From positions 1-64,000 of IMG/VR virus record IMGVR_UViG_3300029220_000234: 64,000 nucleotides of DNA; one strand, 5' to 3'. This stretch comes from a virus. The position numbers and the translations under genes are program-made. Under the pieces are notes generated by a model, which saw nothing but the letters and a program-made list of their open reading frames with translations, had not been told where the DNA came from and ran no database searches. Each line of letters opens with the position of its first letter. The first letter of the stretch is position 1. Positions 44,195 through 61,840 of the stretch are shown here, one piece after another.

Positions 44195-44340
44195 TTACTC
44201 GACAAGCTGTGCGAACTGACTACAATAAAAAATGTACGATAGATAACAAACATCGAAAAAGGCATTCTGCCTTTCGTACAATTCACAATTCTGCAGACAT
44301 AAGGCAGACTCACCGTCTTGGTGGGCCTGCCTTTTTTGTT
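44195..44340 (+). promoter_or_regulatory. Promoter-leader-terminator module A
   Basis: GTGCGAA(44209), TACAATAA(44221), GTACGATAGATA(44234), TCGTACAATTCACAATTCTGC(44274), hairpin AGGCAGACTCACCGTCTTGGTGGGCCTGCCT plus TTTTTTG, then the RBS. Confidence 0.6.
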
Positions 44341-44370
44341 TGCGCAACTATAAAAAAGGAGTATAACGCA

Positions 44371-45111
44371 ATGTTCAAAATTCACAATGACAAAGTCTAT
44401 TTCGTCGCCGAGACCCCCGATATCAACAAAGTTATCGAAATCTTCCTACCCAAGGATGGCCATGGCACCATTATGAATTCACACGAAATTCGTGTGGACC
44501 TGTGCCGTGCCGTCATTCACATGGAGAAGAAGGGTATCCGTGTCTTGAAGGTCCGCAACATTGAGGATACCAACAAGGCAAACATCGACGTCTGGCACAT
44601 GCCGGAATATCAGGAGGCTGCAGAGTCTCCCACGAGCGATGTGGTCGATGCCTGCATCGAGTCCAACTTTGATTCCGGCGCAACGTTCAACCTGCCCTGC
44701 AAAGCAAACCGCAAGACTCGCGAAGTCTTCGACATTGAGTGCGGCGCTTGCCCTAATGACGATGACACGTTCAGCTATGCAGAGGTTAAAGTTAATGGAT
44801 GGCACTATCCGGTCAACAACATCACCGACATTATGGAGGAAAACGATGTTGACAGTGCGTTGGATGAGCTCTACCGCATCCAGCAGAAAGGCGAGTATTG
44901 GGAAGCATACGAGGGCAAATCGCTCACGGATGCCATCCACGAATTCCGCTGGGCTATCCTGAAGGATGCCATTCAGAAGCGCGGACATGAGGCTGTTGCT
45001 GATTTTGTCGGAACCGACATTTCCAGTGACGCTTATGACCGCGTGATGGACGAAACCGAAACCCAGATGCCGAACGAAGAATTCGAGCGCTTCTGGGAAA
45101 AGTACATCTAA
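44371..45111 (+). CDS. Hypothetical protein
   Basis: RBS AAAAAGGAGTATAACGCA-ATG. The ORF-track N-terminus is translated module A. Confidence 0.5.
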   Translation: MFKIHNDKVYFVAETPDINKVIEIFLPKDGHGTIMNSHEIRVDLCRAVIHMEKKGIRVLKVRNIEDTNKANIDVWHMPEYQEAAESPTSDVVDACIESNFDSGATFNLPCKANRKTREVFDIECGACPNDDDTFSYAEVKVNGWHYPVNNITDIMEENDVDSALDELYRIQQKGEYWEAYEGKSLTDAIHEFRWAILKDAIQKRGHEAVADFVGTDISSDAYDRVMDETETQMPNEEFERFWEKYI

Positions 45112-45146
45112 GAAACATCTCACACACAGAAAGGGAGCATATTACT

Positions 45147-45473
45147 ATGGCTATTTTCAACACCAACGATTTCCTTCGCAAAACCTTCAGCAAGACCATT
45201 TTTGGTACTGCTGCACTTCGTCCGGAAGCGGTTTGTGCAGACGGCTTCACCCTGTCTATTCAGGCAAGCAGCATGCACTACTGTATACCGAGTGAGGACC
45301 TGTCGGACGGCGATTACTCTAAGGTCGAACTCAGCTACTTGTCTGAGGAGGTCGAAGAGTTTCTGCCGTTTGCTGAAGACGACGAGGCTCCGCTGGCTAC
45401 GGTCTACGGGTATGTGCCTGTAGAAATCGTGGATGCGGTTCTTGCCAAGCACGGCGGCATCGTCAACGTTTAA
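45147..45473 (+). CDS. Hypothetical protein, paralog of 4863..5213
   Basis: Shared motif AVCADGFTLSIQASSMHYC ... VPVEIVDAVLAKHGGI. Confidence 0.5.
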   Translation: MAIFNTNDFLRKTFSKTIFGTAALRPEAVCADGFTLSIQASSMHYCIPSEDLSDGDYSKVELSYLSEEVEEFLPFAEDDEAPLATVYGYVPVEIVDAVLAKHGGIVNV

Positions 45474-45488
45474 GAAGGAGGGATACCA

Positions 45489-45830
45489 ATGTTAAAGACT
45501 TTTACTGTCGTTGCCAATGAAGTTATTGGCTTATCCGCAACGGAATGCACGCTGATGCAGTTCAACTACAATCCGGAACAGATTCATGACCCCGAAACCG
45601 TTCTGCGCAGTGCCGTTAAGGACTATCTCCTGACGGATGAAGGCAAGCGTCAGTTGGAACTCAACTGTGGCTGCTGGAACTGGGGCGATGTCGATGACAT
45701 TCCCGACTCGTTCTTTTTGAACTATGGCCTAGCTAAAGTTGCTCCGCTTGATGTGGATATTGTCGTTGACCGCAACGAAAGCTTTACGGATGGCTGCGAC
45801 GAGGACGAGGAGGAGTTATGCAATGAGTAA
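45489..45830 (+). CDS. Hypothetical acidic protein
   Basis: RBS AAGGAGGGATACCA-ATG. Confidence 0.45.
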   Translation: MLKTFTVVANEVIGLSATECTLMQFNYNPEQIHDPETVLRSAVKDYLLTDEGKRQLELNCGCWNWGDVDDIPDSFFLNYGLAKVAPLDVDIVVDRNESFTDGCDEDEEELCNE

Positions 45831-45987
45831 GTTGTACATTAACGGCGAAGTTGTGCAAAACGCTATTGGCTGGCGCTTGACCGCAGTTCCCGAACTGGGT
45901 TGGGCTATTTTGCTGAGTGATGGCACGCAGAGCTTTATCCCGAAAACAGAAATCAAATTCATGTACGTTGAAAAGGGAGATGAATAA
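45823..45987 (+). CDS. Small hypothetical protein
   Basis: ATG overlapping the upstream stop. 54 aa. Confidence 0.35.
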   Translation: MSKLYINGEVVQNAIGWRLTAVPELGWAILLSDGTQSFIPKTEIKFMYVEKGDE

Positions 45988-45988
45988 C

Positions 45989-46729
45989 ATGCGCATTTGT
46001 AGTGTAAGCAATGTGGTCATAGAAATCACGCGCCGGTGCAATATGTGTTGTGCGCACTGCCTGCGCGGAGATGCCGAAAATGTCGATATTCAGGAAAGAT
46101 ACATAGATGCTTTTCTTGACAGCTTTGAGAAAGGCGCTTGTATCAGCTATATCGTTTTCAGCGGTGGAGAGATTTCTCTGAATATCCCGGCAATTCGGTA
46201 TATTCTGAAAGCCGTTAAAGAGCGAAACATCTCGGTTGGCAGCTTCTATATGGTCACCAATGGCAAGGCTGTCGATAAGATGGCGGACCTTGCTTTGGCG
46301 AGTCTTGAATGGTGGAACTACTGTTGCGACAAAGACGACGACATGTGCGGTCTTTGTATCAGCAGCGACAACTTCCACGAGAAAATCCCGCATGAAAGCG
46401 AAGGCTTCTTTAGTGGCTTGAAATACAGCCACGACGATAAGGTGACGGACTTTCGCTTTCATCCCCTTATCAACGAAGGCCGCGCCGAAACCATCAATTC
46501 GAGTCTCTACAGAAAATGCGAACCATGCGTGGAGAAGCTCGAATACGAAATCAATGGAGATGACGGTATCGATTTCTGGTGCAGCGAGATGTACCTGAAC
46601 GCTGTTGGTGATGTTGTCTCCGGCTGTAACTGGTCTTATGAGTCTCAGAAAAAGTACCGTATCGGGAACGTGATGGACAAAAACTGGCTGGATAATATCT
46701 CCGACAGCGAATGGTGCATTGCGAACTAA
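45989..46729 (+). CDS. Radical SAM domain protein
   Basis: CNMCCAHC is a CxxxCxxC [4Fe-4S] motif near the N-terminus. VFSGGEISL is a GGE SAM-binding motif. The Cys-rich C-terminus is SPASM-like. RBS AAAAGGGAGATGAATAAC-ATG. Confidence 0.65.
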   Translation: MRICSVSNVVIEITRRCNMCCAHCLRGDAENVDIQERYIDAFLDSFEKGACISYIVFSGGEISLNIPAIRYILKAVKERNISVGSFYMVTNGKAVDKMADLALASLEWWNYCCDKDDDMCGLCISSDNFHEKIPHESEGFFSGLKYSHDDKVTDFRFHPLINEGRAETINSSLYRKCEPCVEKLEYEINGDDGIDFWCSEMYLNAVGDVVSGCNWSYESQKKYRIGNVMDKNWLDNISDSEWCIAN

Positions 46730-46747
46730 AAAATATCATCAACAAAT

Positions 46748-46790
46748 AGCCACCGCCTCCTTAACGGGAACGGTGGCCTTTTTTCAAAAA
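46748..46790 (+). terminator. Intrinsic terminator directly before the next RBS
   Basis: GCCACCGCCTCCTTAACGGGAACGGTGGC followed by CTTTTTTC. Confidence 0.5.
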
Positions 46791-46802
46791 GGAGACCAAA
46801 AA

Positions 46803-48236
46803 ATGGCTGAAATTAAGAACATGCTTGCACAAATCGGTGCAATGCTGACCAATAAAAAAGATAAACCATTTTCTTACGAAGAACTTGCAGCAATGCTCAA
46901 AACCGACCCGGATGCTCTCAAGACCTTTGATGAAGTTTATAAGACTCAGGTCCTGGAAAGCCGAGAACTGCATGAGAACATGCTCCAGTGGAATTCGGCT
47001 ACTATCAAAGCAATTCTCGACAAAAAGGTCTATTTTCCGCCAGAACTCAATTCACTGATTGACCGCATCGTTGATGAACTGATTCCTGAAACGCGTCTGT
47101 ATATCTACAATGCGAAACACGGCGGTTATTACGTGAAATACTCTGCCAACCGCGATTTTGTGACGGATGTGACGAACAAAGAGCTCAATCGCTACCCGGA
47201 GGAACTTCGTCCGCAGCTTACCGGAAAGTTGATGATGGTTGATGTTTCGGAGCCGTCGTACAAGTCACTGCTCCAGAATTACGCAGAATACAAGAACGCC
47301 AAAAACGACCGCATGAAAATGCTCTACTACAACCTCTTCCGTCAGGGTCTTGATATCCTTGACCTTGACGACTTCACTTATCAGATGTTGGAGATGAATC
47401 CCATTTCTATGGGTTTCTGGCTCCCGCCTCTGGTAGGAGGGTTGTACGGTAACAAGTTCTTCAAAGTGCCGGATACGAAGATTCTTCACGTTCCCATCAC
47501 GATGCTGCAGCTTACCCGTCTTGGCTTTGAGACTCTAAATCCCGTGACGAAAGAAATCGTGAACCGCTATTGCCAGAAGGTCTTCCATCTCGACAGACAC
47601 GAAGATTATTTCATTAAGACGGGCACGTACTCCTCCAAATACGAATTCCGAAACGCTCATATCCACGAGCCTAAGGAAGTCGATGAGATGGGCGAGTATT
47701 TCCTGCTCCTAAATCATCTGACTTGCTCTATGGCAGCTCCCACGAATAACCGCAGTTTCTACGGCGCAAACACCACCAATGAGTGGGTTGTCCGAGAGTA
47801 TATCAAGGATAAGGAAAACAATCCCACCATCTACAATGGCCTGCCGCTTCATACCGAATATCGCGTGTTTGTGGATTTTGACACGAAGGAAATTCTTGGT
47901 GTGAGTCCCTATTGGCGCAGTGACGTTATGAAGAATAAGTTCAAGGAAGTCGCCAGCCCACAGGAACGCCATGATTACGTTGTCTACCAGATACACGAAG
48001 ATGTTCTGAACCAACGTTACCATGAGAGCGTTCAGACCGTTCTGAATGAGATGGAAAAGGTCATTCCTCGAATTAAGCTGACAGGGCAGTGGAGTATTGA
48101 TGTAATGCGCAATGGTGATGACTACTATATCATCGACATGGCCCTTGCTGAACATTCCGCTCTGAACGACTGCGTACCGAAAAATCTGCTTCGCGCTTAT
48201 CCTCAGCAGTGGCTGCCGGGGGAATCGAACGGCTGA
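46803..48236 (+). CDS. Hypothetical protein, possibly ATP-grasp-like
   Basis: RBS AAAAGGAGACCAAAAA-ATG. EYRVFVDFDTKEILGV resembles the ATP-grasp E.R motif. Weak. Confidence 0.4.
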   Translation: MAEIKNMLAQIGAMLTNKKDKPFSYEELAAMLKTDPDALKTFDEVYKTQVLESRELHENMLQWNSATIKAILDKKVYFPPELNSLIDRIVDELIPETRLYIYNAKHGGYYVKYSANRDFVTDVTNKELNRYPEELRPQLTGKLMMVDVSEPSYKSLLQNYAEYKNAKNDRMKMLYYNLFRQGLDILDLDDFTYQMLEMNPISMGFWLPPLVGGLYGNKFFKVPDTKILHVPITMLQLTRLGFETLNPVTKEIVNRYCQKVFHLDRHEDYFIKTGTYSSKYEFRNAHIHEPKEVDEMGEYFLLLNHLTCSMAAPTNNRSFYGANTTNEWVVREYIKDKENNPTIYNGLPLHTEYRVFVDFDTKEILGVSPYWRSDVMKNKFKEVASPQERHDYVVYQIHEDVLNQRYHESVQTVLNEMEKVIPRIKLTGQWSIDVMRNGDDYYIIDMALAEHSALNDCVPKNLLRAYPQQWLPGESNG

Positions 48237-48272
48237 TTACAAACAACTAATAACATTTTGGGAGGTAAAATT

Positions 48273-49352
48273 ATGGCCACTATTAACGACGTAAAATATC
48301 TGACAGAAGAAGGAATTTATGAATTTCTTCACAACCCGAACGAAAATTATCTTGAGGGGTTCGCGGTAGATAAGGAACCCGCTTTCTATTGCCCTAGCAA
48401 CTGCGAAGATGGAACGTATCTAAGGCTCTTCAAGGCCCCGGTTAACAGTAGGATGACAGAGTTGCTTATGCAGGATTTTAGATGGAGCGCACGAGAAGGC
48501 TGTTACAACACGCCGCTCCCTGAAGACTGCACAATCAGCTTTAAGCGTGCCGGATTTATTGCCGATTCATCCAAGTTCTGGATTCTGTCGGATTATCTTC
48601 TTAAAGTTTGCCCTAAATTGAAACCTGAATTAACAGATTTCCGTCAGCAGTTTGAACGGGCATTCTGCAAGAAAATTCTCGACGATTTCAGTATGAGCCG
48701 TGACCTAATCAATAGCAAAGAAGCAGAAGGACGTGCAGAGCAGTATGCCATCTATGCTATGCTCAAGAAGAAGCCGGTTTATCATGAATATGTAATTGAC
48801 GATGCAATGAGTATTGTTCGCAGTTTTGGCTTTAGAAGCATGGCAAACTATATCCTTGACGCGAATGATTATCTTGAAAGTGCATTAGCCAACCTCAAAG
48901 ATAGAGTAATAAGAAGCTTTGTTTTTCAAGGAGTATGGTACAGCAGACGAGCATGTGATTTTCCTAAAAAAGTTGAAGCTGCAAGACTGGCTGATAAAAT
49001 TGCACATACGTTCATTGCTGCCGACAATGACTCTCAACGTATTGCAAAAAGTGTATGTGCATATTGCTCACGGGAACTTAATGATAGAAAAAACGTGACC
49101 ATCACGATTGGAACCAGCGATGATAACGGTATTCCCGTTAAAGTTTCTTGCGATACCCTGCTTCATTATGAGCCAACCTCCAAAGAGATTTTTATCAATG
49201 TCAAATCCGCAAGCAAGAACGAACGCGAAAAAATCAATCAATACGTAAAAGATAACGGCGCTTTTGTAAGCGAAGACCTTGTTCCAATGAACCTTTTACA
49301 GTCTGTTATCTCCTACGGTTGGGAACATTGGAATCGAGATTTTCCTGAATAA
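48273..49352 (+). CDS. Hypothetical protein
   Basis: RBS GGGAGGTAAAATT-ATG. 359 aa. Confidence 0.5.
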   Translation: MATINDVKYLTEEGIYEFLHNPNENYLEGFAVDKEPAFYCPSNCEDGTYLRLFKAPVNSRMTELLMQDFRWSAREGCYNTPLPEDCTISFKRAGFIADSSKFWILSDYLLKVCPKLKPELTDFRQQFERAFCKKILDDFSMSRDLINSKEAEGRAEQYAIYAMLKKKPVYHEYVIDDAMSIVRSFGFRSMANYILDANDYLESALANLKDRVIRSFVFQGVWYSRRACDFPKKVEAARLADKIAHTFIAADNDSQRIAKSVCAYCSRELNDRKNVTITIGTSDDNGIPVKVSCDTLLHYEPTSKEIFINVKSASKNEREKINQYVKDNGAFVSEDLVPMNLLQSVISYGWEHWNRDFPE

Positions 49353-49422
49353 TAATCCTAGATATTTGTATCACTCATACAAAGCTGGAAAACTCCTGGA
49401 TTGACTTTCCCAAAAAATAACA

Positions 49423-49467
49423 GTTAAGACCACTGCCCCGAAAAGGGTAGTGGTCTTATTTTTTTGC
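49423..49467 (+). terminator. Intrinsic terminator
   Basis: AAGACCACTGCCCCGAAAAGGGTAGTGGTCTT followed by ATTTTTTTG. Confidence 0.55.
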
Positions 49468-49499
49468 ACAATACTTACCATAAATTACCAGAAAGAAAA

Positions 49500-49533
49500 A
49501 CGTTGTGCATCTGTGCGAATTGCATATAATACA
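49500..49533 (+). promoter_or_regulatory. Phage-type promoter driving tnpB (GTTGTGCATCTGTGCGAATTGCATATAAT)
   Basis: Near-identical to the helicase promoter at 37305. Confidence 0.55.
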
Positions 49534-49648
49534 AAATATAGAACGAAAGGCATCAAAAAATATCGTTGGTCGGGCAAAATCGGACCAAAAGGCTAGGGCA
49601 GCTCGGAAATACAGAAGGAGTCAAATCTAATGGAAAGGAGGCTTCACG

Positions 49649-50980
49649 GTGAAAATAACTTCAAGCTATGCCGTAGAAATAAAAAAGCAGCGGATGTTCG
49701 ATGATACTATAAAATTGTATCGTGAAGCCGTTTCTTTCTTGATTGATTGCTTTAATAAAGAATGGCTGGCAATTCAATCAGTTGATAAGGCGAAAGCCAA
49801 ATTCAACTTTGCTGAAAAGCTGGTACATACAACAAAATACAATGTAGCAAAGTATGATTTTGATGCCAAATTCTATAAGTTTCCCAGCTACTTGCGCAGA
49901 GCTGCTATTCAAGCGGCATTGGGCTCGGTAAGCAGTTACCGCAGCAACTACAAGAACTGGGAAGCTAACGGTAAGGTTGGCAATGAGCCGAAGCTACAAT
50001 GCGATAGGTTTTGTTTCCCGACTTTCTATAAAACCGTTATGTTTACTGAAAGCAATGAACCTAACCAGTGCTACTTAAAGCTGTATAGCAAAAATGACTG
50101 GGTTTGGGTTCCTGTTGCAATGCGTGCTACCGATGTGAAGTACATCACGAAATACTGGTCGCATTGCCAAAAGAGTGCTCCCACTCTCGAAAAGAAGTAC
50201 GGAAAGTATTTCCTACGCTTCGCTTTCGAAGAAGAGGTGAAGCTCTCTGATACTGAAATTCAGGATAGGCGTATCTGCGCTGTTGACCTTGGCCTCAATA
50301 CCGACGCTGTGTGCAGCATCATGACTGCCGATGGAACTGTCATTGCAAGAAAGTTTATCAATTTTGCAAGTGAAAAAGACCATCTGTATCATGTGCTAAA
50401 CCGTATTAAGCGTAAACAAAGGGAACGCGGTCCCAAGAGCACTGCCGCTATGTGGCGATACGCCAAAGCCTTGAATGATGATATAGCGAAAAAGGTGGCT
50501 GCCGCCATTACCGAGTTTGCAGTGCTTTACTCTGTCGATGTAATTGTTTTTGAACATTTATCATTTACAGGCAAAAAGCACGGCGGCAGTAAAGCACAAA
50601 AGTTGTCGATGTGGAAGCGTAATTCTATACAGGATTATATAGAACATAAGGCGCATCGCTGCGGCATCCGTATTTCGCGTATCTGCGCTTGGGGGACAAG
50701 CAAACTTGCCTTTGATGGCAGCGGTTCTCTCAAGCGTGATGAAACCAACCACGCCATTGCAGCTTTTGCAAGTGGCAAACGATACAACTGTGACCTTAGT
50801 GCGAGCTACAACATTGGCGCTCGCTACTTTGTCAGAGAGTTGCTAAAACCCTTGCCAGTGATGGTGAGGTCTCAGCTTTCGGCTAAAGTTCCGGAAGCTG
50901 AGCGTAGAATCCAAGTTACACTTGCCACGCTTAAAGTCTTGTACCCTGAGTATCAAAAACTTACGGCACAAGCAGCGTAA
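49649..50980 (+). CDS. tnpB: TnpB-like RNA-guided nuclease (IS200/IS605 OrfB family) lacking the C-terminal Zn finger
   Basis: GTG start after GGAAAGGAGG. RuvC-I RICAVDLGLNTDAVCS. RuvC-II VDVIVFEHLSF. WGTSKL. RuvC-III-like NCDLSASYNIGARYF (D..S..NI). There is no CxxC...CxxC. Confidence 0.8.
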   Translation: MKITSSYAVEIKKQRMFDDTIKLYREAVSFLIDCFNKEWLAIQSVDKAKAKFNFAEKLVHTTKYNVAKYDFDAKFYKFPSYLRRAAIQAALGSVSSYRSNYKNWEANGKVGNEPKLQCDRFCFPTFYKTVMFTESNEPNQCYLKLYSKNDWVWVPVAMRATDVKYITKYWSHCQKSAPTLEKKYGKYFLRFAFEEEVKLSDTEIQDRRICAVDLGLNTDAVCSIMTADGTVIARKFINFASEKDHLYHVLNRIKRKQRERGPKSTAAMWRYAKALNDDIAKKVAAAITEFAVLYSVDVIVFEHLSFTGKKHGGSKAQKLSMWKRNSIQDYIEHKAHRCGIRISRICAWGTSKLAFDGSGSLKRDETNHAIAAFASGKRYNCDLSASYNIGARYFVRELLKPLPVMVRSQLSAKVPEAERRIQVTLATLKVLYPEYQKLTAQAA

Positions 50981-51140: not shown

Positions 51141-51147
51141 CAAATAG

Positions 51148-51282
51148 GCTTGCTCAAACGTGCGATTTCACTAAAATTGTAATTGTACGATAGATAACAG
51201 CCTTTTGGCCTAAATGCGTACAATTCATATTCTGCAAAGAATCAGCAGACTCACCATCTCGGTGGGCCTGCTTTTTGTTTTG
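51148..51282 (+). promoter_or_regulatory. Promoter-leader-terminator module B
   Basis: CTTGCT...GTGCGAT...GTACGATAGATA(51185)...GCGTACAATTCATATTCTGC...hairpin AGCAGACTCACCATCTCGGTGGGCCTGCT plus TTTTTG. It is followed by a 6-codon mini-ORF (MKIIPN) before the real gene. Confidence 0.6.
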
Positions 51283-51359: not shown

Positions 51360-52202
51360 ATGTATTGCATTCAGTATGACGAAATCTGCAAAATGCACGG
51401 CTTTGAGATTGAACATGATGCTCATGGTGACGGAGTAACCCTCAAATACCCAGCAGGTCATACCCCGAAAAAATCCTTTCGTCTTTCTCAGAATCATCTT
51501 TCTGAGGAAGTATCGGCTATGGCTGAAAAGTACCGCAGTGACAGCTTTGCCATGTTTATATTTAGAGCTGCTGCGGCGGCGGGAAACACCATCAGTCTTT
51601 CCGAGACTATGGAGGAAAACAAAAAAGTTTCCGCAGCTCTCTCTGATTTAGCGGACGACCTGAAACAAGCAGAGCTGGAAGCCAAGACTTGGGTTTGCAC
51701 CGACCCTGATACATGCCAGTGGCGGCGTCAGGTTGGCGGAACTCGATACGAGCTGTACGACATTTTCGAAGCTCCGAATGGCACTTATTTTGCTGTTCAC
51801 GGTGAAGTTGACCCGACCGAGCTTGACCCAGATGACTACGACCAACTGCTTGAGGCTTATTCCGGCTTGCTGGACTCTGCCAACTGTGAGAGCGAACGCT
51901 GGGCACTCATTGCGGAAGCACAGTTTGAGACCGAAGAACTTTCTATGGAGCGTGAACGCTTTTCGACTTTCGAAGGAGCTGAAAGAGCGATTCGGAAAAA
52001 GGTTGGTGCAGACGTTTCAGATAAGAATGCTGTGACCGAAACTCGTCTCGATGCGATTCGCAAGCTCGATAAGCTGCGTCTTGCCATCTTTTTGAACGAT
52101 GTTCGCAGAGGCGTGAAAGACTTTCCTTCCGATAACATGAGCTGGTGTGACTGGCTTAGCAAACCGGATGACGGACATTTGCTGGATGTGAAGCCTGTTT
52201 AA
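51360..52202 (+). CDS. Hypothetical acidic protein
   Basis: RBS AAAGGAGAAGTAATT-ATG. 280 aa. Confidence 0.5.
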   Translation: MYCIQYDEICKMHGFEIEHDAHGDGVTLKYPAGHTPKKSFRLSQNHLSEEVSAMAEKYRSDSFAMFIFRAAAAAGNTISLSETMEENKKVSAALSDLADDLKQAELEAKTWVCTDPDTCQWRRQVGGTRYELYDIFEAPNGTYFAVHGEVDPTELDPDDYDQLLEAYSGLLDSANCESERWALIAEAQFETEELSMERERFSTFEGAERAIRKKVGADVSDKNAVTETRLDAIRKLDKLRLAIFLNDVRRGVKDFPSDNMSWCDWLSKPDDGHLLDVKPV

Positions 52203-52250: not shown

Positions 52251-52257
52251 TGATACC

Positions 52258-52815: not shown

Positions 52816-52849
52816 CATTTTTGCCGTTCACCTTCGGATGAGCGGCATT

Positions 52850-52992
52850 TTTTGTTTGCTATACTGTGCGAACGGTATAAAATAGTAGTTGTACGATAGA
52901 TACCATCTACTTAGGCGCATCCAGCGTTCGTACGATTCACAATTCTGCTTTAAGGCGGATTTCCCGGTTTTTGGGAGGCCCGCCTTTTTGCA
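52850..52992 (+). promoter_or_regulatory. Promoter-leader-terminator module C
   Basis: GTGCGAACGG, TATAAAAT, GTACGATAGATACCAT(52890), TTCGTACGATTCACAATTCTGC, hairpin AAGGCGGATTTCCCGGTTTTTGGGAGGCCCGCC plus TTTTTG. Confidence 0.6.
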
Positions 52993-54627: not shown

Positions 54628-54652
54628 GACCGCAAAAATGGAGGAAAACAAG

Positions 54653-55225: not shown

Positions 55226-55244
55226 CGCTTTTTGCACAAACTTT

Positions 55245-55382
55245 TCTTGACCTTTTGTACGAACGGCATAGAATAGTATTCGTACGATAGATACTATCCA
55301 CAGGGACGCTATTTGCGTTCGTACAATTTACAATTCTGCTTTAAGGCGGGCTTCCTGATTCTGGGAGGTCCGCTTTTTTGCG
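55245..55382 (+). promoter_or_regulatory. Promoter-leader-terminator module D
   Basis: TTGACC...TGTACGAACGG...CGTACGATAGATACTAT(55280)...TTCGTACAATTTACAATTCTGC...hairpin AAGGCGGGCTTCCTGATTCTGGGAGGTCCGC plus TTTTTTG. Confidence 0.6.
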
Positions 55383-55406
55383 TTCAAAAAAGGAGTGTAT
55401 TTGAAA

Positions 55407-56132
55407 ATGGCGAACAATGTAACCCGTACAACTTGTCGTTCTTGCAGCAACCCATACTATGTTCGAGCACGAATCATCGCAAAAAGTGCCGGTAGTCCCG
55501 CGTATCGATTTGACATCAATGAAAGTGTAAGTCTTCCGATGTACCAACATGGCTTTGTCAGGGACATAATTGACGGCGGCAAAATATATGTCGTGCAGAT
55601 GTTCGAATCGACCGAATACCGCTGCTATGCGTGGCCTGACATGAGACCGGAATACGGATACAAAGATATCGGTTCCATCTACGGAAAGCCGAACCCGCAC
55701 AAGCCACTTCCGGTCAGTAACTACAATCACACCGTTCGATTTTTGCTGGGTTTCCTGTACTTCTATAATGTTGATTTGACACCCGCTTATCAGAGCCACT
55801 ATGCCTGGAACGAAGCACGGAAAGTCGCATATCTTGCTGATATTTTCGCGGGAAAAAATGCCGGAGAAGTCGTATTTCAGGAAGTTCCGTCATCTGACCC
55901 GAAACCAAAATATCAACTCATCAAAGGAGAACAAGAAGCCATCACACTTCGAGAGTTTTACGAAAATCGACTCTTGTACAAAAAAGCATGCTACAACGAC
56001 ATTCGTGCGGAGGATGTTTCCCAGTTTAACTACACCTTGCTGCGAATGATTGTCTACAACCAAAAGCACAAACCTTCCACTACATACGAAGACATATCAC
56101 TTATCGGCGGGATACTCTTAGGAAGGTACTAA
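55407..56132 (+). CDS. Hypothetical protein
   Basis: RBS AAAAAGGAGTGTATTTGAAA-ATG. Confidence 0.5.
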   Translation: MANNVTRTTCRSCSNPYYVRARIIAKSAGSPAYRFDINESVSLPMYQHGFVRDIIDGGKIYVVQMFESTEYRCYAWPDMRPEYGYKDIGSIYGKPNPHKPLPVSNYNHTVRFLLGFLYFYNVDLTPAYQSHYAWNEARKVAYLADIFAGKNAGEVVFQEVPSSDPKPKYQLIKGEQEAITLREFYENRLLYKKACYNDIRAEDVSQFNYTLLRMIVYNQKHKPSTTYEDISLIGGILLGRY

Positions 56133-56164
56133 AACCAAAAAACAATAACGAAGGAGTAATTTTT

Positions 56165-56674: not shown

Positions 56675-56675
56675 T

Positions 56676-57158: not shown

Positions 57159-57169
57159 AGCATCACACT

Positions 57170-57213
57170 TCAGCAGCCGCTCGCCAATATGGTGGGCGGC
57201 TTTTTTTTGTTGC
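57170..57213 (+). terminator. Intrinsic terminator
   Basis: CAGCCGCTCGCCAATATGGTGGGCGGCTT followed by TTTTTTGTTG. Confidence 0.55.
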
Positions 57214-57577
57214 TGAATAGTGCGAAACGATTAGGATGAAAGATATAGCCGATATGAATGTGAAATCTCGAAGTGAGGTGACCAGCGTGGATGAATTTCA
57301 GTATATTGTGCTGCCGAATGGCAAAAAGAGATACTACCGTGAGCCTGATATGTCTCGGACGGACAGAAAAACCGCAAATATAATTTACAACCCCTGCGCC
57401 GGGAAAGCCCACTCCGTGAGGGGTGGGAGTGCGTCAAAATGCATTCGAAAATCGTGAACCCTATAACGCAAAAATGCGAGAACTGAAGAAGCGAGTCAAA
57501 AAGCAGAATGCAGAATTGCAGGCATTGGCTGAAAAGGGCGTGAAAATTTGACAACAAGGCATTTTATTTTTTCGCCC

Positions 57578-57722
57578 ACTTGTCAGCATGTGCGAATCAG
57601 AGATAATGGTATATGTACGATAGATACCATCTACAAAAAGGCGTTATTTGCGCTCGTACAAAATTCATAATTGCGCTTCATGGCGGACTTCCTGAGAAAT
57701 CGGGAGGCCCGCCTTTTTGCGT
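57578..57722 (+). promoter_or_regulatory. Promoter-leader-terminator module E
   Basis: TTGTCAGCATGTGCGAATCAGAGATAAT, GTACGATAGATACCAT(57616), CTCGTACAAAATTCATAATTGCGC, hairpin GGCGGACTTCCTGAGAAATCGGGAGGCCCGCC plus TTTTTG. Confidence 0.6.
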
Positions 57723-57739
57723 AGAAAGGAAGTATTTAT

Positions 57740-58450
57740 ATGGCAACTCGAACAATTTTATTCCGTGGCCAAACGCGACGCAAGGGTGAACGAACCTCAA
57801 TATCTGGTATCCCACTGCCAGGCATCTGGGTCACGGGCGGCGTCTTTCCTCAGAACAAGGGGTATGATTACGCGATAATCTACCAGCAAAACCCCAAGGT
57901 CGAGAAATACGTTGTACACACGGACACTATTGGCCAGTATACCGGAATCAACGATTCTCTTGGCACCTTCGTCTTTGAAGATGACTTCATCACATTCTGG
58001 CTGAAAGGTGATTCGACTCGAACTCGCTGTAAAGGTGTGGTCGAATATCCGGAATCATCAGCCTGCTTCATGGTTCGCCTTTGCGAATCCAAAGACATCG
58101 TCATGCTCAAGGATTGCTGCTGCATTCACGTGATTGGCAATGTCTTTGACGGCGAATTCGACAAGAATGAAAGCGAGATGAAACGTCTTTACGCGGAATG
58201 CTTGAACCTTGCAAAGCACATTGACACTATCATGCTCCGCTATAGCCCTGATATCGACGCTCTCGAAGCCGAAAGCCTTTCCGATATGGCTGTGCGCTTG
58301 CTCGATGGAACTTCTCGCCATGACGTTGTTAAGGGCTTGGAGGATTTTCACGACAAGTGGAGTCACTACAACGAACAGGCAGCGGCAGAATCTCAAGTGA
58401 TTCTTGACAAGATTTCTGAGCTGTTCAACAAGGGTGGTGATTGCCAATGA
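57740..58450 (+). CDS. YopX-family phage protein
   Basis: ILFRGQTRRKGE...GIWVTGGVF......YVVHTDTIGQYTGINDSLGTFVFEDDFI fits the YopX N-terminal pattern. Confidence 0.55.
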   Translation: MATRTILFRGQTRRKGERTSISGIPLPGIWVTGGVFPQNKGYDYAIIYQQNPKVEKYVVHTDTIGQYTGINDSLGTFVFEDDFITFWLKGDSTRTRCKGVVEYPESSACFMVRLCESKDIVMLKDCCCIHVIGNVFDGEFDKNESEMKRLYAECLNLAKHIDTIMLRYSPDIDALEAESLSDMAVRLLDGTSRHDVVKGLEDFHDKWSHYNEQAAAESQVILDKISELFNKGGDCQ

Positions 58451-58722
58451 CGACTGAAACCGAATACCAAAACGCTGTGAAATACCTCACCAGGCTCCTG
58501 AACGGCGGCTTGATGGGGGAACGTGGCAGCAAACCTCTGCGTATAGCCATTGAGGCTTGTGAGCTGCAAATTCCAAAGCAGCCCATCTCGAAGAACTGGT
58601 CTCCGAACCTCTGCCCACATTGCGATGCGGACCTGGGCGGCGACTGCAATGATGGCTACTATCAGAACCCGCATTATGAGCGCTGTCCTGTCTGTGGTCA
58701 GAAACTCGATTATAGCGAGTAA
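58447..58722 (+). CDS. Small Cys-rich (CxxC...CxxC) protein
   Basis: ATGA-coupled start. CPHCDADLGGDC...CPVCGQKL Zn-ribbon. Confidence 0.4.
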   Translation: MTTETEYQNAVKYLTRLLNGGLMGERGSKPLRIAIEACELQIPKQPISKNWSPNLCPHCDADLGGDCNDGYYQNPHYERCPVCGQKLDYSE

Positions 58723-58738
58723 AGGAGCGTGAAGAACT

Positions 58739-59332
58739 ATGATGTTGTCTGAGTTCGAGAAGCTCACCGGCTTAAAGGTTACGACAGCAGAATACGCAAA
58801 AATTGAGGCTGAATATATGGAAAGCCCCGATGACAAAGCAAAGTTCTGCAAGATGTGGCTCAAAAAAGGAGGGCTTCAAAAGCTCCATAACGCAAGGCTT
58901 GAGGAAATTGAACATCTGAAAAAGACCATCAAGGACCTTGAGCACAAACTTGATGAAGAGCAAGACTGGCAGATTTCTCATAAGTACGGCACGCACTACC
59001 AAAAAACATCTTATGACCATCTTACCAAACGCTGCTCTAATGAGCATCAGTTTGAGTCCGAGGCGAAAGCTGCAGAGTTCATCAGTTCTCAGTATGGTTT
59101 CGACAAAGATAGGATTGTCTTTATCCACGATGTCGAAGTCTATGAGACGAATCGGCACGGAATAACGCGTCTGAAAGAACGGCTTACTCGTTTTCCTTAC
59201 TATGTCGGTTGCAGAGCAAACTATGCACGTTTCGATGTGCGTTGCTGCGGCGGGAGTATGCAATGGGAACTTGTAGACGGAGAACTTAAAGACTATTCCA
59301 CGCCTCCATTTTTACCCGATGGGGAGCAATAG
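58739..59332 (+). CDS. Hypothetical protein
   Basis: RBS AAAGGAGCGTGAAGAACT-ATG. Confidence 0.5.
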   Translation: MMLSEFEKLTGLKVTTAEYAKIEAEYMESPDDKAKFCKMWLKKGGLQKLHNARLEEIEHLKKTIKDLEHKLDEEQDWQISHKYGTHYQKTSYDHLTKRCSNEHQFESEAKAAEFISSQYGFDKDRIVFIHDVEVYETNRHGITRLKERLTRFPYYVGCRANYARFDVRCCGGSMQWELVDGELKDYSTPPFLPDGEQ

Positions 59333-59433
59333 TTCCCCAAGAATCATCACACCGCACAGGCCCCAATGATGCCTGTGCATGATTTTTTGTATTTCATAAA
59401 ACCATCAATGTTTCAAAAGGAGTGTGTAAGCAC

Positions 59434-59838
59434 ATGATTACTTTACCTACTAACCATCCCTATTTCTTCACTTGCCCGTCTTGTGGCTGCAAACTCATTT
59501 CCGTTTCTACCGGCAACCGAGCCAAACCCCATTGCCCAAAGTGCAACTACTCAGCCGATGATGCTTTTGTGGTCAAAGACCGCGTTACGAGCGAGGCCAT
59601 GAATGTCATCGCTGACAACACAGAACTGGCTGAAAACTTTGCCGAAACCGTGAAGCGTGAAATCGCGAACGATGACGATTCATATGCACACATCGGTTTC
59701 CACTTGGCAAACGACATTCGGAATCAGAGTCCCGCGTCCGAAGTGCTCCTAACCCTCTGTGGCTGGACCATCGAGACGCTGCTTGACAAGACGCCGCCCA
59801 TCGCAATCGATGAAGGCGACAACAACAATGAAAAATAA
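59434..59838 (+). CDS. Small Zn-ribbon protein. Its 3' 100 nt are duplicated at 61555..61655
   Basis: RBS AAAGGAGTGTGTAAGCAC-ATG. CPSCGC...CPKCNY. Confidence 0.5.
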   Translation: MITLPTNHPYFFTCPSCGCKLISVSTGNRAKPHCPKCNYSADDAFVVKDRVTSEAMNVIADNTELAENFAETVKREIANDDDSYAHIGFHLANDIRNQSPASEVLLTLCGWTIETLLDKTPPIAIDEGDNNNEK

Positions 59839-59853
59839 GAGGTATACAAAAAA

Positions 59854-60264
59854 ATGTTTGAATTAAATCTTTCCAACGCTCTGGCGTTGATTGACCAGCC
59901 CGTGTGGGTCGTCACTGAAGTGCGCAGCCGCAACAAGAACGGTCGCATCTACGCAAAGTCACGTGCGAAAAGCACGGTTTATCCCGGAAACATTCAGACC
60001 GTCAGCGTTTGGCGCGGCTATACTCGCGCCGGAGACAGCGTCGGTGCGCCAAAGTGTACTGTTGAAGTCTGCATCCATACCGGCGATGACCTTGCTGACA
60101 ATGTCATCCTACCCGCTGAGCTGCTGAATGTTACGGTGTTTGACAAGAAAGAGGATGCCGAAAAAGAGCTGGCGTACCTCAACGCCAACATGAACACTAT
60201 GACATTCTCTGAACAGCGTCAGCGTGAAAACAAAAAAAACGCAACTGTATTCGGAATCGCTTGA
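59854..60264 (+). CDS. Hypothetical protein
   Basis: RBS AAGAGGTATACAAAAAA-ATG. Confidence 0.45.
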   Translation: MFELNLSNALALIDQPVWVVTEVRSRNKNGRIYAKSRAKSTVYPGNIQTVSVWRGYTRAGDSVGAPKCTVEVCIHTGDDLADNVILPAELLNVTVFDKKEDAEKELAYLNANMNTMTFSEQRQRENKKNATVFGIA

Positions 60265-60282
60265 GGCACCCTAGATTTTTCT

Positions 60283-60420
60283 GCTTGCCACTTTATGCGA
60301 GTCGGATATAATTAGAACTGTACGATAGATACCATTCTACAAAAGCACATCTTGTGCTCGTACGGTTCACAATTCTGCTTTAAGGTGGACTTCTCATTAC
60401 GAGAGGTCCGCCTTTTTGTT
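60283..60420 (+). promoter_or_regulatory. Promoter-leader-terminator module F
   Basis: CTTGCCACTTTATGCGAGTCGGATATAAT, GTACGATAGATACCAT(60320), CTCGTACGGTTCACAATTCTGC, hairpin AAGGTGGACTTCTCATTACGAGAGGTCCGCC plus TTTTTG. Confidence 0.6.
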
Positions 60421-60447
60421 TAACTATGAAAAAAGGAGTGTTTTATC

Positions 60448-61521
60448 ATGACCGAAAACGAAAAAGCAAGAGAGCTCATAGCTACCTCTGAAACGACCGT
60501 GAAGGTTGACCCCCAGAACGGCTGGTATCTCAAGCGGTTTGCCGCCCTGCAGTTTGAGGGCTCCGTGGACAATTTCAGCACAAATATGCCAATTCATGTC
60601 CTTGAACAGCAGCTTCCGAAAGATGATACCATGAAGTTGGATGACGCTGTCGCTGAAGGTCAAGATATCGATTACAGCAAGTTTTATGACGAAGATGGCT
60701 GCAGCTATTCGTCGGTCAGCGAGCTTGTAGAAGTACAGCTCGGCCTTGACGATGACGATTCAATTCGGGAATATAACGAGGAAAACCCTGACTTGCCGTA
60801 CATCCCGTATGAAAAGCTGCAGGAAATGGATACGAAGGATATTCCGGAATTGTTGTTGTCTGTCACTGATGAGGCCGACTATGTGGATGCATACAAGGAA
60901 GTAACCGATATCGCATCTTGGAATGTGGAAGTCACTCCCATGAGCAACAACTATGAAGCCATGGGATTCGCGTTCACGCATCAGGGACTCAAAGAGTACG
61001 AAAAGTCCATCGATAACCATATTTTCCATTCCTGCCGTACATATGCCTATGCAGGGGAGCAGCACAACCGCCGCGAGGGCGATTTTTATCCCATCATGGA
61101 ATTCCTGCACAGCGCCGGTGAACAGCTTCTGGTTGACGACCTTAAGCGGTTCGATGTCAAGGTGATGGAACTCGCTACTGCGGAAGAGGTGGAAAATCTT
61201 TATCGAACCGTTCCCAATGAGCCGCATCAGGCTGCTTATATCAAGGTCATGGATAGAAAAACGAATACGGTATATAGCCGCATCTATGTTTTCTGTGCAG
61301 GCCAAGAAGAGAAGTGCCTCAACGGCGATACTTATCTGAGCAATAAGCAGCATTATGTCTTGGTCAAAAAGGGTGACGATACCTATAAGGTTCCTTATCC
61401 GTTTGACTGTGATAAGACAGTTGAAGCCCTGAATAAGAAGTCCGAAAAGGAAGAGACACTGACCGCAGCACAGCGGCTGTTCTTCTGGGCAGAATACAAG
61501 AAAACTATCAAGTTGGATTGA
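60448..61521 (+). CDS. Hypothetical protein, paralog of 61866..62945
   Basis: Colinear similarity throughout (..LKRFAALQFEGSVDNFSTNMPIHVL.. versus ..LKQYAALQFPGSVDNFGTKTPIHLL..). Confidence 0.55.
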   Translation: MTENEKARELIATSETTVKVDPQNGWYLKRFAALQFEGSVDNFSTNMPIHVLEQQLPKDDTMKLDDAVAEGQDIDYSKFYDEDGCSYSSVSELVEVQLGLDDDDSIREYNEENPDLPYIPYEKLQEMDTKDIPELLLSVTDEADYVDAYKEVTDIASWNVEVTPMSNNYEAMGFAFTHQGLKEYEKSIDNHIFHSCRTYAYAGEQHNRREGDFYPIMEFLHSAGEQLLVDDLKRFDVKVMELATAEEVENLYRTVPNEPHQAAYIKVMDRKTNTVYSRIYVFCAGQEEKCLNGDTYLSNKQHYVLVKKGDDTYKVPYPFDCDKTVEALNKKSEKEETLTAAQRLFFWAEYKKTIKLD

Positions 61522-61554
61522 GGCAAATAAGCCAAGAAATTGCAACCCATGTGG

Positions 61555-61655
61555 TTGCGTCAGAGTCCCGCGTCCGAAGTGCTCCTAACCCTCTGCGGCT
61601 GGAACATTGACACGCTACTCGACAAAACGCCTCCCATCGCTATCGAGGACTGACG
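61555..61655 (+). repeat. Roughly 100-bp duplicate of the 3' end of gene 59434..59838 (gene fragment)
   Basis: CAGAGTCCCGCGTCCGAAGTGCTCCTAACCCTCTG(C/T)GGCTGGA...ACGC(T/C)(A/G)CT(C/T)GACAA(A/G)ACGCC(T/G)CCCATCGC matches 59716-59825 at about 90% identity. Confidence 0.6.
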
Positions 61656-61698
61656 CCATTGGTACTGTCCAGAACGTCAAAACTTTGGCACAAATACG

Positions 61699-61840
61699 CC
61701 TTGCCGATACGTGCGAATCAGAGATAATAATATTTGTACGATAGATATCATTTGTCTTTGACAAGGTCTCTTGTGCATGTACTATTCACAATTTCGTTGA
61801 AGAGCGGACTTCTTGTTATTCAGGAAGCCCGCTTTTTATA
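61699..61840 (+). promoter_or_regulatory. Promoter-leader-terminator module G
   Basis: CTTGCCGATACGTGCGAATCAGAGATAATAA, GTACGATAGATATCAT(61736), GCATGTACTATTCACAATTTCG, hairpin AGAGCGGACTTCTTGTTATTCAGGAAGCCCGCT plus TTTTTA. Confidence 0.55.

Follow-up and report, generated by a model that had tools for sequence, protein, structure and literature searches.

A unit of ~140 bp that joins a promoter, a structured leader and a terminator stands in front of many unrelated genes of a large uncultured gut phage, and these genes are probably unlocked together via terminator read-through; the same unit also marks cassette-swap points between related phages. Tentatively, we read each module as a leader-terminator gate, in which a shared factor recognizing the leader RNA is needed for read-through of the terminator (T1), such that the gated genes form a co-regulated class. 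The copies described individually here come from one stretch of 64,000 nucleotides, called the window.

Anatomy and Distribution of the Module

Eight copies had been reported by the first-pass annotation, seven on the plus strand and a degenerate one on the minus strand, and all are present at their reported sites, with coordinates right to ~5 nt. The figure of exactly eight does not hold, since a covariance model built from the copies, as had been suggested, and combined with a promoter scan adds three degenerate ones (42882-43001, 32377-32495, and 33339-33461). The individual copies, with covariance model scores in bits, are:

44199..44337, plus strand: module A (61 bits); promoter 44199-44226, +1 G at 44234, P1/P3 leader, T1 end 44337; gene start 44371, heading a 7-gene unit that closes at the terminator 49425-49458
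51150..51276, plus strand: module B (33 bits); promoter 51150-51177, +1 at 51185, T1 end 51276; gene 51360-52202, with a 6-codon mini-ORF between T1 and gene
52822..52989, plus strand: module C with upstream T0 (121 bits); T0 52822-52853, promoter 52856-52883, +1 at 52891, P1/P2/P3 leader, T1 end 52989; gene start 53015
55247..55379, plus strand: module D, without upstream T0 (118 bits); promoter 55247-55274, +1 at 55282, T1 55343-55376; gene 55407-56132, ParB/GmrSD_N-like
57580..57718, plus strand: module E (93 bits); promoter 57580-57607, +1 at 57615, T1 end 57718; gene 57740-58450, YopX domain
60285..60417, plus strand: module F (106 bits); promoter 60285-60312, +1 at 60320, T1 60382-60414; gene 60448-61521, paralogous to the module G gene
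61701..61837, plus strand: module G (53 bits); promoter 61701-61728, +1 at 61736, T1 end 61837; gene 61866-62945
5254..5370, minus strand: module H, degenerate type; promoter 5370-5343, +1 at 5335 (GTACGACAGATA), T1 end 5254; gene 5183-4863 (minus), a paralog of 45147-45473
42882..43001, plus strand: module J, degenerate, beyond the earlier list (24 bits, E 0.004); T1 42962-42994; gene 43020-44180, metallo-beta-lactamase fold
32377..32495, plus strand: module K (15 bits); degenerate type-1-like leader GUAUCAAAGAUACCA...AACAUUCCGC with terminator
33339..33461, plus strand: module I, a remnant; promoter and GTACGACAGATA kept, leader diverged, terminator-like hairpin

Alignment recovers the colinear architecture proposed for the copies, in the order -35, TGCGA, -10, GTACGATAGATA, hairpin, TCGTAC, ATTCACAATT, GC-rich hairpin with T-tract, and SD-ATG. 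Every copy opens with a sigma-70-like promoter and the invariant GTACGATAGATA at the transcript start; the stem P1 then encloses a hairpin of variable sequence, P3, and 3′ of these come a conserved single-stranded box (box 2, AUUCAYAAUUYYGC), the strong intrinsic terminator T1, and then SD and ATG. GTACGATAGATA is exact on the plus strand at 44234, 51185, 52891, 55282, 57615, 60320, and 61736, and carries one mismatch at 5335 (minus) and 33374 (plus); at two or fewer mismatches it gives 11 matches against 2.6 expected, a number reached in 0/100 shuffles, while the 21-mer TCGTACAATTCACAATTCTGC gives four matches at three or fewer mismatches against 0 expected. More than 117 IMG/VR phage loci, on contigs mostly of 30-190 kb, carry copies, which are absent from Rfam and from the deposited phage genomes and plasmids searched. 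Their density in the window is ~10 or more per 64 kb.

T1 is kept in 196/205 instances, its hairpin averaging -19 kcal/mol and leading into four or more T in a row, and family-wide it accompanies 127 of the 129 type-1 leaders. It lies 82-107 nt from the transcript start, and SD and gene follow ~6-25 nt past it, a distance too short for any other promoter of the first gene; expression would thus require read-through, as had been proposed from the placing of a terminator between promoter and gene. An SD and ORF begin within 50 nt downstream in 80% of modules. A second terminator, T0, directly precedes the -35 in 68/179 modules (38%), whereas in the ~62% with no separate upstream terminator T1 is the only one between units.

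The spacer motif TGTGCGAA (TGCGA), earlier taken as a part of the module, instead marks a general promoter class of this phage, many members of which have no leader or terminator. It has 28 matches in the window against 1.4 expected, ~26 of them judged genuine promoters, many of which drive short leaders that carry no terminator. The promoter of module J is of this type, with a spacer carrying TTCGA ahead of the leader GUAAACAGAUAC...GAUUCACAAUCUGU, and 3′ of module I a second TGCGA promoter (33455) precedes an IscB-like ORF (33811-35073). Because such promoters exist both with and without leader and T1, the gate appears to be a discrete add-on that splits two gene classes. Among other promoters, an AGATA leader motif is found in 34/43 with a terminator versus 1/52 without. 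Four "type-2" leaders (19892, 25818, 26034, and 37308) have a terminator while box 2 is absent, and a leader-specific factor would therefore not explain them.

Selection on the Leader RNA

All eight RNAs adopt the predicted fold, with z-scores of -2.9 to -6.2, and the compensatory changes on which the proposed stems hinged are abundant in P3 and T1, with a few in P1. Every pair of P3 has them, alongside many G·U pairs, and the T1 stem, which is 98.9% paired, has them at 9/12 pairs; these changes, together with G·U pairs that are strand-specific, argue that the RNA fold is under selection, on the sense strand. P1 is present in the minimum-free-energy fold of 144/156 unique leaders, and the few sequence variants of this stem keep their pairing (GUAUG/CAUAC, ACUA/UAGU). 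Where P1 is missing, the 5′ region pairs with the box 2 flank, and module H, which has neither P1 nor P3, pairs box 1 CAGAU with box 2 AUCUG instead; the conserved H and J types can do without P1/P3. Rfam returned only HEARO and an HDV ribozyme in the window, both outside modules, and chance-level matches at 52.8-62 kb (E<=10); no leader peptide, Rfam riboswitch or T-box was found in the leaders.

Box 2 is conserved though predicted to be unpaired (123/179 folds), and its distance from box 1 ranges from ~14 to ~40 nt. This variable spacing, with the conserved 5′ 12-mer and unpaired box 2, fits recognition as RNA better than recognition of a DNA site. The end of box 2 covaries with the T1 5′ arm: CGC goes with GCGGA by 42:4, TGT/TGA/TGG occur only with GCAGA, and cognate partners form the stronger duplexes when compared with non-cognate ones. 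This covariation could merely reflect linkage within two module lineages, a possibility that speaks against a gate, as does the length of the proposed antiterminator helix, ~5 bp against 12-15 bp for T1. The box-2 end also has an alternative partner in a GCR after the U-tract (YGC:GCR), a pairing that lengthens T1 and itself covaries.

The YGC:GCR pairing bears on whether the terminated ~100-nt RNA is the main product, an sRNA with box 2 as seed or protein sponge and with genes expressed by leak-through only. A strong promoter, a discrete transcript, a Rho-independent terminator end with U-tail, a conserved unpaired 14-nt box and many copies per genome would all suit such a product. Yet no free-standing module was seen, every observed copy lying sense-oriented 6-25 nt 5′ of an SD and ORF; complementary targets in the window are only the opposite strands of the modules themselves; and the YGC:GCR pairing, which flanks the U-tract, is possible in read-through RNA only. 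We regard an sRNA as very doubtful.

Proposed Passage Through T1

Under the gate that we tentatively favor, a host sigma-A-type RNA polymerase would initiate at G(+1) and produce a ~60-nt leader, in which a helix with the 5′ end, usually P1 (GUACGA:UCGUAC), would join two invariant single-stranded boxes, box 1 (GAUAGAUA(C)CA) and box 2. By default we infer that polymerase stops at T1, and the downstream gene or genes would be expressed on read-through. A single trans-acting factor common to the modules, most probably a protein encoded by the phage, would bind the bipartite leader RNA and suppress T1, perhaps via a stabilized weak helix between box 2 and the T1 5′ arm (UCUGC:GCRGA), or via polymerase modification. 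The gated units would then switch on together, in a putative temporal logic that sets them apart from units whose promoter is of the same type but drives a short, terminator-free leader. In the roughly 60% of cases with no other terminator ahead of the module, T1 would also close the upstream unit; the sole terminator behind the TnpB-like unit upstream of module B is B's T1. Among ~60 ORFs of the window, itself part of a genome of at least 100 kb, Pfam/PHROG searches for antiterminator candidates gave no Q, N, BglG/CAT, ANTAR, NusG-like or sigma match. Small antiterminators are frequently missed by profile searches.

A conserved leader RNA upstream of or overlapping an intrinsic terminator, with a weak alternative helix overlapping the terminator 5′ arm, is shared with lambda N/nut, BglG/SacY-RAT, and ANTAR systems, which place several leaders under one protein. 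Unlike these, the modules have no recognizable boxA/boxB, RAT or ANTAR dual-hexaloop motif and a far higher copy number per genome; Pfam detected no CAT/PRD or ANTAR domain in the ~60 window ORFs, and the 5-bp helix alone overlaps the T1 5′ arm.

A leader under selection for its fold might instead act with no factor, as a cis-acting antiterminator RNA that binds its own polymerase and makes it terminator-resistant; transcription initiated at the module would then always pass T1, and terminators would stop unmodified polymerases only. Such RNAs are known from HK022 put (PMC9378689), Tn916 canT (PMC11658703), and pLS20 conAn (PMC8191782), the latter two from Gram-positive elements, and canT shows their existence in Firmicutes mobile elements. 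The modules likewise carry a structured nascent RNA between promoter and terminator in a mobile element: ~60 nt from +1, as in putL (PMC9378689), with two predicted hairpins enclosed by P1, where put is a two-stem RNA of ~70 nt that works alone and processively on the beta′ zinc-binding domain of RNA polymerase, and with a -10-like TACGAT at +2..+7 comparable to an element proposed to aid putL folding. The window ORF scans, which found no protein factor, also agree with this idea. Nonetheless, polymerases of upstream origin would transcribe the leader too and become resistant, such that T1 could not insulate units, yet it is the sole inter-unit terminator in ~62%, and processive resistance would leave dozens of promoters and T0 terminators largely redundant. 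Conserved H/J-type modules without P1/P3 argue in the same direction. Whereas an element has one or two copies of put, canT, or conAn, with processive effects on terminators far away, each module has its own terminator and gene right behind it, and sequence or Rfam similarity to them is absent. Factor-independent read-through is, in our view, distinctly unlikely.

T1 blocking upstream transcription while passing promoter-initiated transcription would be accounted for by a DNA-acting, lambda-Q-like phage protein bound at or close to the promoter and transferring to polymerase held at a sigma-dependent pause element of the initial transcribed region, with T1 passed only by polymerases initiating at the module promoter. 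The lambdoid Q late cassette runs PR′, sigma-dependent pause element, tR′, late genes (PMC9388147), and the module follows this definition in its order of promoter, -10-like TACGAT at +2..+7 (fitting TAnnnT), terminator ~100 nt on (~100-200 nt downstream across the two systems), and genes that would be reached only by antitermination, a short terminated RNA being made without the factor. Moreover, the promoter spacer holds the conserved box TGCGA, +1..+12 is invariant at the DNA level, and TAnnnT at +2..+7 occurs in 11/15 window promoters with a leader terminator and 0/11 without, although these copies are not independent. TGCGA is, however, just as common at promoters that have neither a pause-like element nor a terminator, and no Q-binding element specific to the regulated promoters is thus apparent. 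Some natural variants (GTGCGAT, GTTCGAT, and GTACGAC) differ at the critical A(+3) or T(+7), and the conservation of box 2 and the compensatory changes in P3/P1 are left unexplained by Q, which needs neither an RNA fold nor a second RNA box. Q cassettes also stand once per genome, beside the Q gene, and act processively over >20 kb, in contrast to ~10 or more modules per 64 kb; the Pfam families Q21, Q82 and Q-lambda, and PHROGs, gave no homolog in the ~60 window ORFs. We hold this mechanism to be highly unlikely.

Mosaic Junctions and Mobile Cassettes

The cassette logic suggested for the downstream genes is backed by the mosaic junctions at which modules sit. Of the inter-contig pairs with a flank in common, 352 share both, 100 the upstream only, and 73 the downstream only (173 one-flank), as raw counts with no random-position baseline. 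The paralogy noted for several downstream genes is likewise borne out, at 48.6% identity between the genes of modules F and G and 50% between that of module H and 45147-45473. Repeated and highly conserved as it is, the module appears to act as a homologous recombination joint for cassette swapping.

These junctions could also reflect a portable promoter spread by recombination, with no dedicated regulation, where a leaky T1 mainly ends the upstream unit, the paired 5′ end guards mRNA from 5′-end-dependent decay, and conservation arises via gene conversion between copies. A 5′-terminal stem from +1 is the classic geometry of Gram-positive mRNA stabilizers, and 62% of modules have no separate upstream terminator, both of which favor such a promoter. 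But conservation is strongly non-uniform, which gene conversion alone does not predict: the 5′ 12-mer, fixed in 187 unique copies owing to how these were sampled, is present in ~77/81 modules sampled via box 2/T1 alone, and box 2 is kept, while P3, loops, and promoter spacer drift. T1, furthermore, appears strong rather than leaky, and a leader is unnecessary for promoter function, given that the same promoter is used without leader or T1. A portable promoter alone is unlikely, if worth keeping in mind, and its closest precedent is the promoter-early stem-loop (PeSL), the mobile regulatory cassette of T4-type phages (Arbiol 2010, PMC2839356; Comeau 2014, PMC4122927).

PeSLs and modules alike are short, conserved, multi-copy elements that combine a sigma-70-like promoter, terminator stem-loop, and SD, and that front unrelated accessory/ORFan genes in plastic regions, at indel or replacement junctions. 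The PeSL stem-loop lies 5′ of the promoter, with no conserved transcribed leader, a position that T0, immediately 5′ of the -35, takes in 38% of modules. Unlike PeSLs, the modules belong to a phage of a Firmicute-type host, share no sequence similarity with them, and have a conserved, structured leader of ~60 nt and a second terminator between start site and gene, the defining, always-present T1 hairpin downstream of the start.

Module copies and the promoter class they share

The repeated unit described in the first-pass annotation is real. Its leader-start 12-mer, GTACGATAGATA, occurs exactly on the plus strand at 44234, 51185, 52891, 55282, 57615, 60320 and 61736, and with one mismatch at 5335 (-) and 33374 (+); with up to two mismatches the window holds 11 matches against 2.6 expected, a count reached in 0 of 100 shuffles. 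A 21-mer 3' of the hairpin gives four matches at up to three mismatches, where none are expected. Reading and aligning the copies bore out the proposed colinear architecture.

Order of elements in the module, from copies read and aligned
1, -35 element, TTGnC
2, TGCGA(A), within the promoter spacer
3, -10 element, TAnAAT
4, 7 nt, then GTACGATAGATA(C)CA
5, variable small hairpin
6, (T)CGTAC
7, A(A)TTCAYAATTYYGC
8, GC-rich hairpin and T run
9, Shine-Dalgarno sequence (SD) and start codon

A covariance model built from ten copies scored the seven plus-strand copies at 33-121 bits and also found a degenerate copy at ~42928-43013, and a promoter scan added two more degenerate copies, with starts at 32377 and 33339. 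Aligned columns of the window copies average 54% identity. Module H, the minus-strand copy, has neither the closing stem nor the variable hairpin, and module B carries a 6-codon mini-ORF ahead of its gene.

A matrix of 187 unique promoter copies, numbered relative to the G of the leader start, places TTG at -35..-33, TGCGAA at -24..-19, TAnAAT at -13..-8 and T at -1. The spacing of these elements and an ideal Y(-1)R(+1) start site suggest that this G is +1. The pattern TTG-N8-TGCGA-N6-TAnnnT matches the window 28 times against 1.4 expected, and about 26 of these matches look like genuine promoters of a phage-wide class, defined by 16 nt of spacer separating TTGnnn from TAnAAT and by a TGCGA box (-24..-20), which may be a factor site or a spacer element. 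Three arrangements lie downstream of such promoters: a type-1 leader, which contains the conserved segment called box 2, with the leader terminator T1 (the modules); a short 5' UTR; and a type-2 leader.

TGCGA-class promoters of the window other than module promoters
5448, 7959, 14735 (Mor-like gene), 15945, 19159, 31923, 49503 (TnpB), 57210: short 5' UTR straight to the SD, no terminator
19892, 25818, 26034, 37308: type-2, short leader and terminator without box 2

Family-wide, 129 of 224 unique promoters of this class have type-1 leaders, with T1 present in 127 of the 129; among the other 95, an AGATA leader motif is found in 34 of 43 with a terminator versus 1 of 52 without. The spacer motif TGTGCGAA, which had been described as part of the module, did not hold up as such: about 26 window promoters carry it, many of them without the module leader, and it is thereby ruled out as a module-specific operator or Q-binding element. 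Because the box is present at promoters without this leader, it belongs to the general promoter of the phage, with the leader and T1 as a discrete add-on.

Several other units of this promoter class merit description. At 25818-26130 (+) a type-2 promoter and leader (ATAGGATGAATCAGTGTGAGC... / ATAAGATAAATAAGTGTGAGC...) occurs as two tandem copies ~216 bp apart, both with terminator-like hairpins, upstream of a GIY-YIG/HTH homing-endonuclease-like ORF (26153-27361). The type-2 leader at 37308-37400 (+) starts AUAAGAUAAGAAUUGUG, and its GAAUUGUG is exactly complementary to box 2 CACAAUUC; this complementarity is absent from other type-2 leaders and may be coincidence. A Mor-family transcription activator (PF08765, E 6e-9; 14960-15313, +) lies behind a terminator-less TGCGA promoter; its targets may be promoters of another class, middle or late. 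A TnpB-like ORF (phrog_506, Cas12f1-like TNB; 49503-50980, +) and a truncated TnpB-like fragment (17584-18175, +) each have their own TGCGA-type promoter and no leader terminator.

A conserved leader RNA

Conservation along the module is selective and goes beyond what recent duplication would leave. In a sample anchored only on box 2 (AUUCAYAAUUYYGC, before T1) and the T1 arm, and thus independent of the 5' end, the 5' 12-mer is kept in ~77 of 81 modules; drift is seen instead in the variable hairpin P3, in the loops and at spacer positions. The eight module RNAs fold as the first-pass annotation proposed, with z-scores of -2.9 to -6.2, and compensatory changes, whose lack would have spoken against an RNA-level role, are present in P3 and T1.

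Helix support in a model-guided alignment of 115 distinct sequences (fit to the model biases the counts towards the given structure)
P3: 98% paired, with numerous G·U; both-side changes at every pair
T1: 98.9% paired, with a conserved U·G; both-side changes at 9/12 pairs
P1 (closing stem, GUACGA:UCGUAC): essentially invariant; 99% paired; uninformative for covariation
P2 (UAGAU:AUCUA): unsupported, with 86% pairing and both-side changes at none of its pairs
U-tract-flanking 3-bp helix (YGC 5' of T1, GCR 3' of the T-run): 90% paired; both-side changes at 3/3 pairs

A plain MAFFT alignment run through RNAalifold recovered T1 alone and supports it independently, 8 of its 11 pairs being compensated; aligning P3 needed the hand-annotated covariance model. 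Minimum-free-energy folds contain P1 for 144 of the 156 unique leaders, and the rare 5'-arm variants of P1 include compensated (GUAUG/CAUAC, ACUA/UAGU), wobble-preserving (GUGCG/CGUGC) and uncompensated cases. In variants without P1 and P3 (H, the degenerate copy J and the related locus L048), the 5' region pairs instead with the sequence adjoining box 2 on its 3' side, as in CAGAU:AUCUG or GCAU...AUGC. Taken together, P1 in most leaders and this direct pairing in the remainder suggest a common denominator, in which the predicted 5' end sits in a helix adjoining single-stranded box 2, with T1 next. That selection acts on the sense RNA is shown by the G·U pairs and by the constant orientation of modules towards their genes. 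That an sRNA is the main product of the modules is, in our judgment, very unlikely.

Box 2 might conceivably sequester the SD, but full-length folds leave it unpaired in 123 of 179 modules and pair it mainly with downstream sequence in only 50 of 179. A pseudoknot between box 2 and box 1, the conserved 5' segment from +1, is ruled out for canonical modules, since the commonest UUUCGC class cannot form it; such pairing is confined to P1-less variants. No antisense partner for either box was found in the window, and leaders read by eye contained nothing suggestive of a leader peptide (start codon with SD), a T-box specifier or a start homopolymer of the kind used in NTP-sensing reiterative transcription.

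Proposed terminator read-through and competing explanations

A T1-type hairpin followed by at least four Ts accompanies 196 of 205 instances of the 12-mer, ending 82-107 nt from +1 with a mean hairpin energy of -19 kcal/mol; the nine without a call comprise three chance matches, two insertion-interrupted modules and others just below threshold. Between 42.6 and 62.5 kb, the strong plus-strand terminators are the module T1s and three others, at 49425, 52822 and 57175. For modules A, B, D, F and G, the stretch from the preceding stop codon to the module promoter is free of terminators, so T1 of these modules is probably the sole terminator of the upstream unit too. T0, a hairpin just upstream of -35, occurs in only 68 of 179 modules family-wide. 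The distance from T1 to the SD is only 6-25 nt, so the first gene presumably has no other promoter, and its expression would need T1 read-through. The earlier interpretation is partly supported: it stands for the RNA structure, for the terminator between promoter and gene with the read-through need deduced from it, and for the cassette logic discussed below; module specificity of the spacer box is what fell away.

How would polymerase pass T1? With slightly less than even confidence, we favor factor-dependent read-through directed by the leader RNA, which would set the module genes apart from terminator-less units of the same promoter as a co-regulated, probably delayed class. T1 would stop transcription unless helped, and two invariant, apparently unpaired boxes joined by a helix of variable sequence would form a bipartite RNA recognition site; the spacing between the boxes, variable at ~14-40 nt, speaks against a site on DNA. 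A gate read through only with help is the best fit: T1 is almost never lost and looks strong. The same observation weighs against a leaky T1 in a promoter cassette spread by recombination, with the 5' stem as stabilizer, as does conservation that is selective and not mere recent duplication; we consider that account unlikely. A factor-free RNA resembling put or canT (PMC9378689, PMC11658703) seems to us quite improbable.

Returning to factor-dependent read-through, a 5-bp helix is possible between the box-2 3' end (UCUGC/UUCGC) and the T1 5' arm (GCRGA). The two covary, CGC occurring with GCGGA 42:4 and TGT, TGA or TGG only with GCAGA, and cognate duplexes are ~0.7 kcal/mol better than non-cognate and ~3 better than shuffled ones. 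The geometry is that of protein-stabilized antiterminators, but the helix is weak; the covariation could reflect linkage within two lineages, and these nucleotides can instead lengthen T1 across the U-tract. Domain scans of ~60 ORFs, the window being part of the genome, gave no Q, N, CAT/PRD, ANTAR, NusG-like or sigma domain, and at related loci the ORFs behind terminator-less promoters yielded no obvious regulator, just TnpB, HTH/Mor-like and small membrane proteins. For loading in the manner of Q (PMC9388147), TACGAT at +2..+7 is a candidate sigma-dependent pause element; set against the lack of a Q domain among the ~60 ORFs and a spacer box shared with promoters that have no such leader, this is a slim prospect.

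Textbook antitermination systems (N, Q, put) have one or two promoter-proximal terminators per genome. A leader-directed gate, if real, would be a rare case of many such terminators per genome: one conserved ~100-nt RNA would control a large share of accessory and replication genes in widespread large uncultured gut phages, and the covariance model would be a direct handle for annotating transcription units and finding the regulator. A bolder proposal, which we regard as doubtful, is a distributed antitermination regulon, with dozens of units per genome and one RNA/terminator lock opened by one factor reading the 5'-helix-assembled bipartite site, the lock serving also as insulator and as homologous joint moving cassettes between phages. 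If true, this would amount to a new RNA family and a new organization of temporal control in large gut Firmicute phages.

Cassette exchange, distribution and host

Whatever the mechanism, the modules would explain the exchange of unrelated gene cassettes among these phages. Comparing 300 bp on each side of inter-contig module pairs, counted at module positions only, we found both flanks shared in 352 pairs and one flank only in 173 (upstream in 100, downstream in 73), as the cassette logic would have it. Pairs sharing a single flank point to breakpoints within the module; at L023 versus L029, the same upstream flank and leader are joined to different genes, the switch lying inside the T1 loop. 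Paralogy noted earlier is likewise evident: the genes of F and G are tandem paralogs with 48.6% identity, and 45147-45473 is paralogous to the module H gene. In T4-type phages, PeSL cassettes carry their stem-loop ahead of the promoter and lack a conserved leader (PMC2839356, PMC4122927). Both systems exchange cassettes, and the module differs in its conserved leader and in having its T1 hairpin downstream of the promoter; it takes the PeSL idea past T4-like phages of Gram-negative hosts. In essence, the module would combine two known kinds of element, a leader-terminator gate and a mobile promoter cassette, by a mechanism that we infer.

Modules are also found interrupted or eroded. In 33339-35073 (+), a remnant still has the promoter and GTACGACAGATA; an IscB-like ORF (RRXRR + HNH, 33811-35073) lies directly behind it, and another TGCGA promoter is at 33455. 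At two related loci (L018 ~3116, L085 ~7240) foreign sequence breaks the module downstream of the 5' arm of P3. OMEGA-type elements may use modules as insertion targets or as promoters.

The module is a new RNA family, absent from Rfam and cultured phages. Rfam returned no match on the modules at gathering score or at E<=10, and blastn with one module gave none in 50,697 deposited phage records or 72,556 plasmids (PLSDB), ruling out a known RNA family and a known phage or plasmid repeat. A module 16-mer occurs at >117 IMG/VR loci, on contigs mostly of 30-190 kb (one reaches 389 kb); a single 11-kb locus can hold as many as five copies, and the covariance-model search proposed at the outset yielded 210 copies in 0.82 Mb of matching loci. 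Scanning bacterial genomes for the host with the 16-mer gave mostly chance matches and was uninformative. The exception, DYBQ01000001.1 (223,830 bp; L183, L189, L194), deposited as a 'Clostridiales bacterium' MAG, has at least five copies and is probably a phage genome of this family binned as a bacterium.

The window is ~47% GC and, from 6 kb on, almost all coding is on the plus strand. It encodes a DNA polymerase, helicases, several HNH/GIY-YIG homing endonucleases, nucleotidyltransferase, NADAR, radical-SAM, YopX, zeta-toxin-like and ParB-like proteins, the Mor-family activator, and IscB- and TnpB-like nucleases. Among cultured relatives, Faecalibacterium and Streptococcus phages match the helicase best, at ~50% identity; strong AGGAG-type SDs fit a Firmicute host, and the hosts of the family are probably Clostridia or Faecalibacterium.

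Elsewhere in the window, a HEARO/omega-RNA-type match (RF02033, 91 bits; 5875-6135, +) is followed by an SPFH/flotillin-domain ORF (6193-7836, +), not IscB, and looks like an orphan. Just after a VWA-domain ORF (8862-10556) comes a match to the Faecalibacterium prausnitzii HDV-like ribozyme ('HDV-F-prausnitzii', RF02682, 60 bits; 10583-10652, +). Two adjacent HNH/endonuclease-like ORFs, 1884-3443 (-) and 3569-4819 (-), are paralogs with 41.6% identity over 315 aa.
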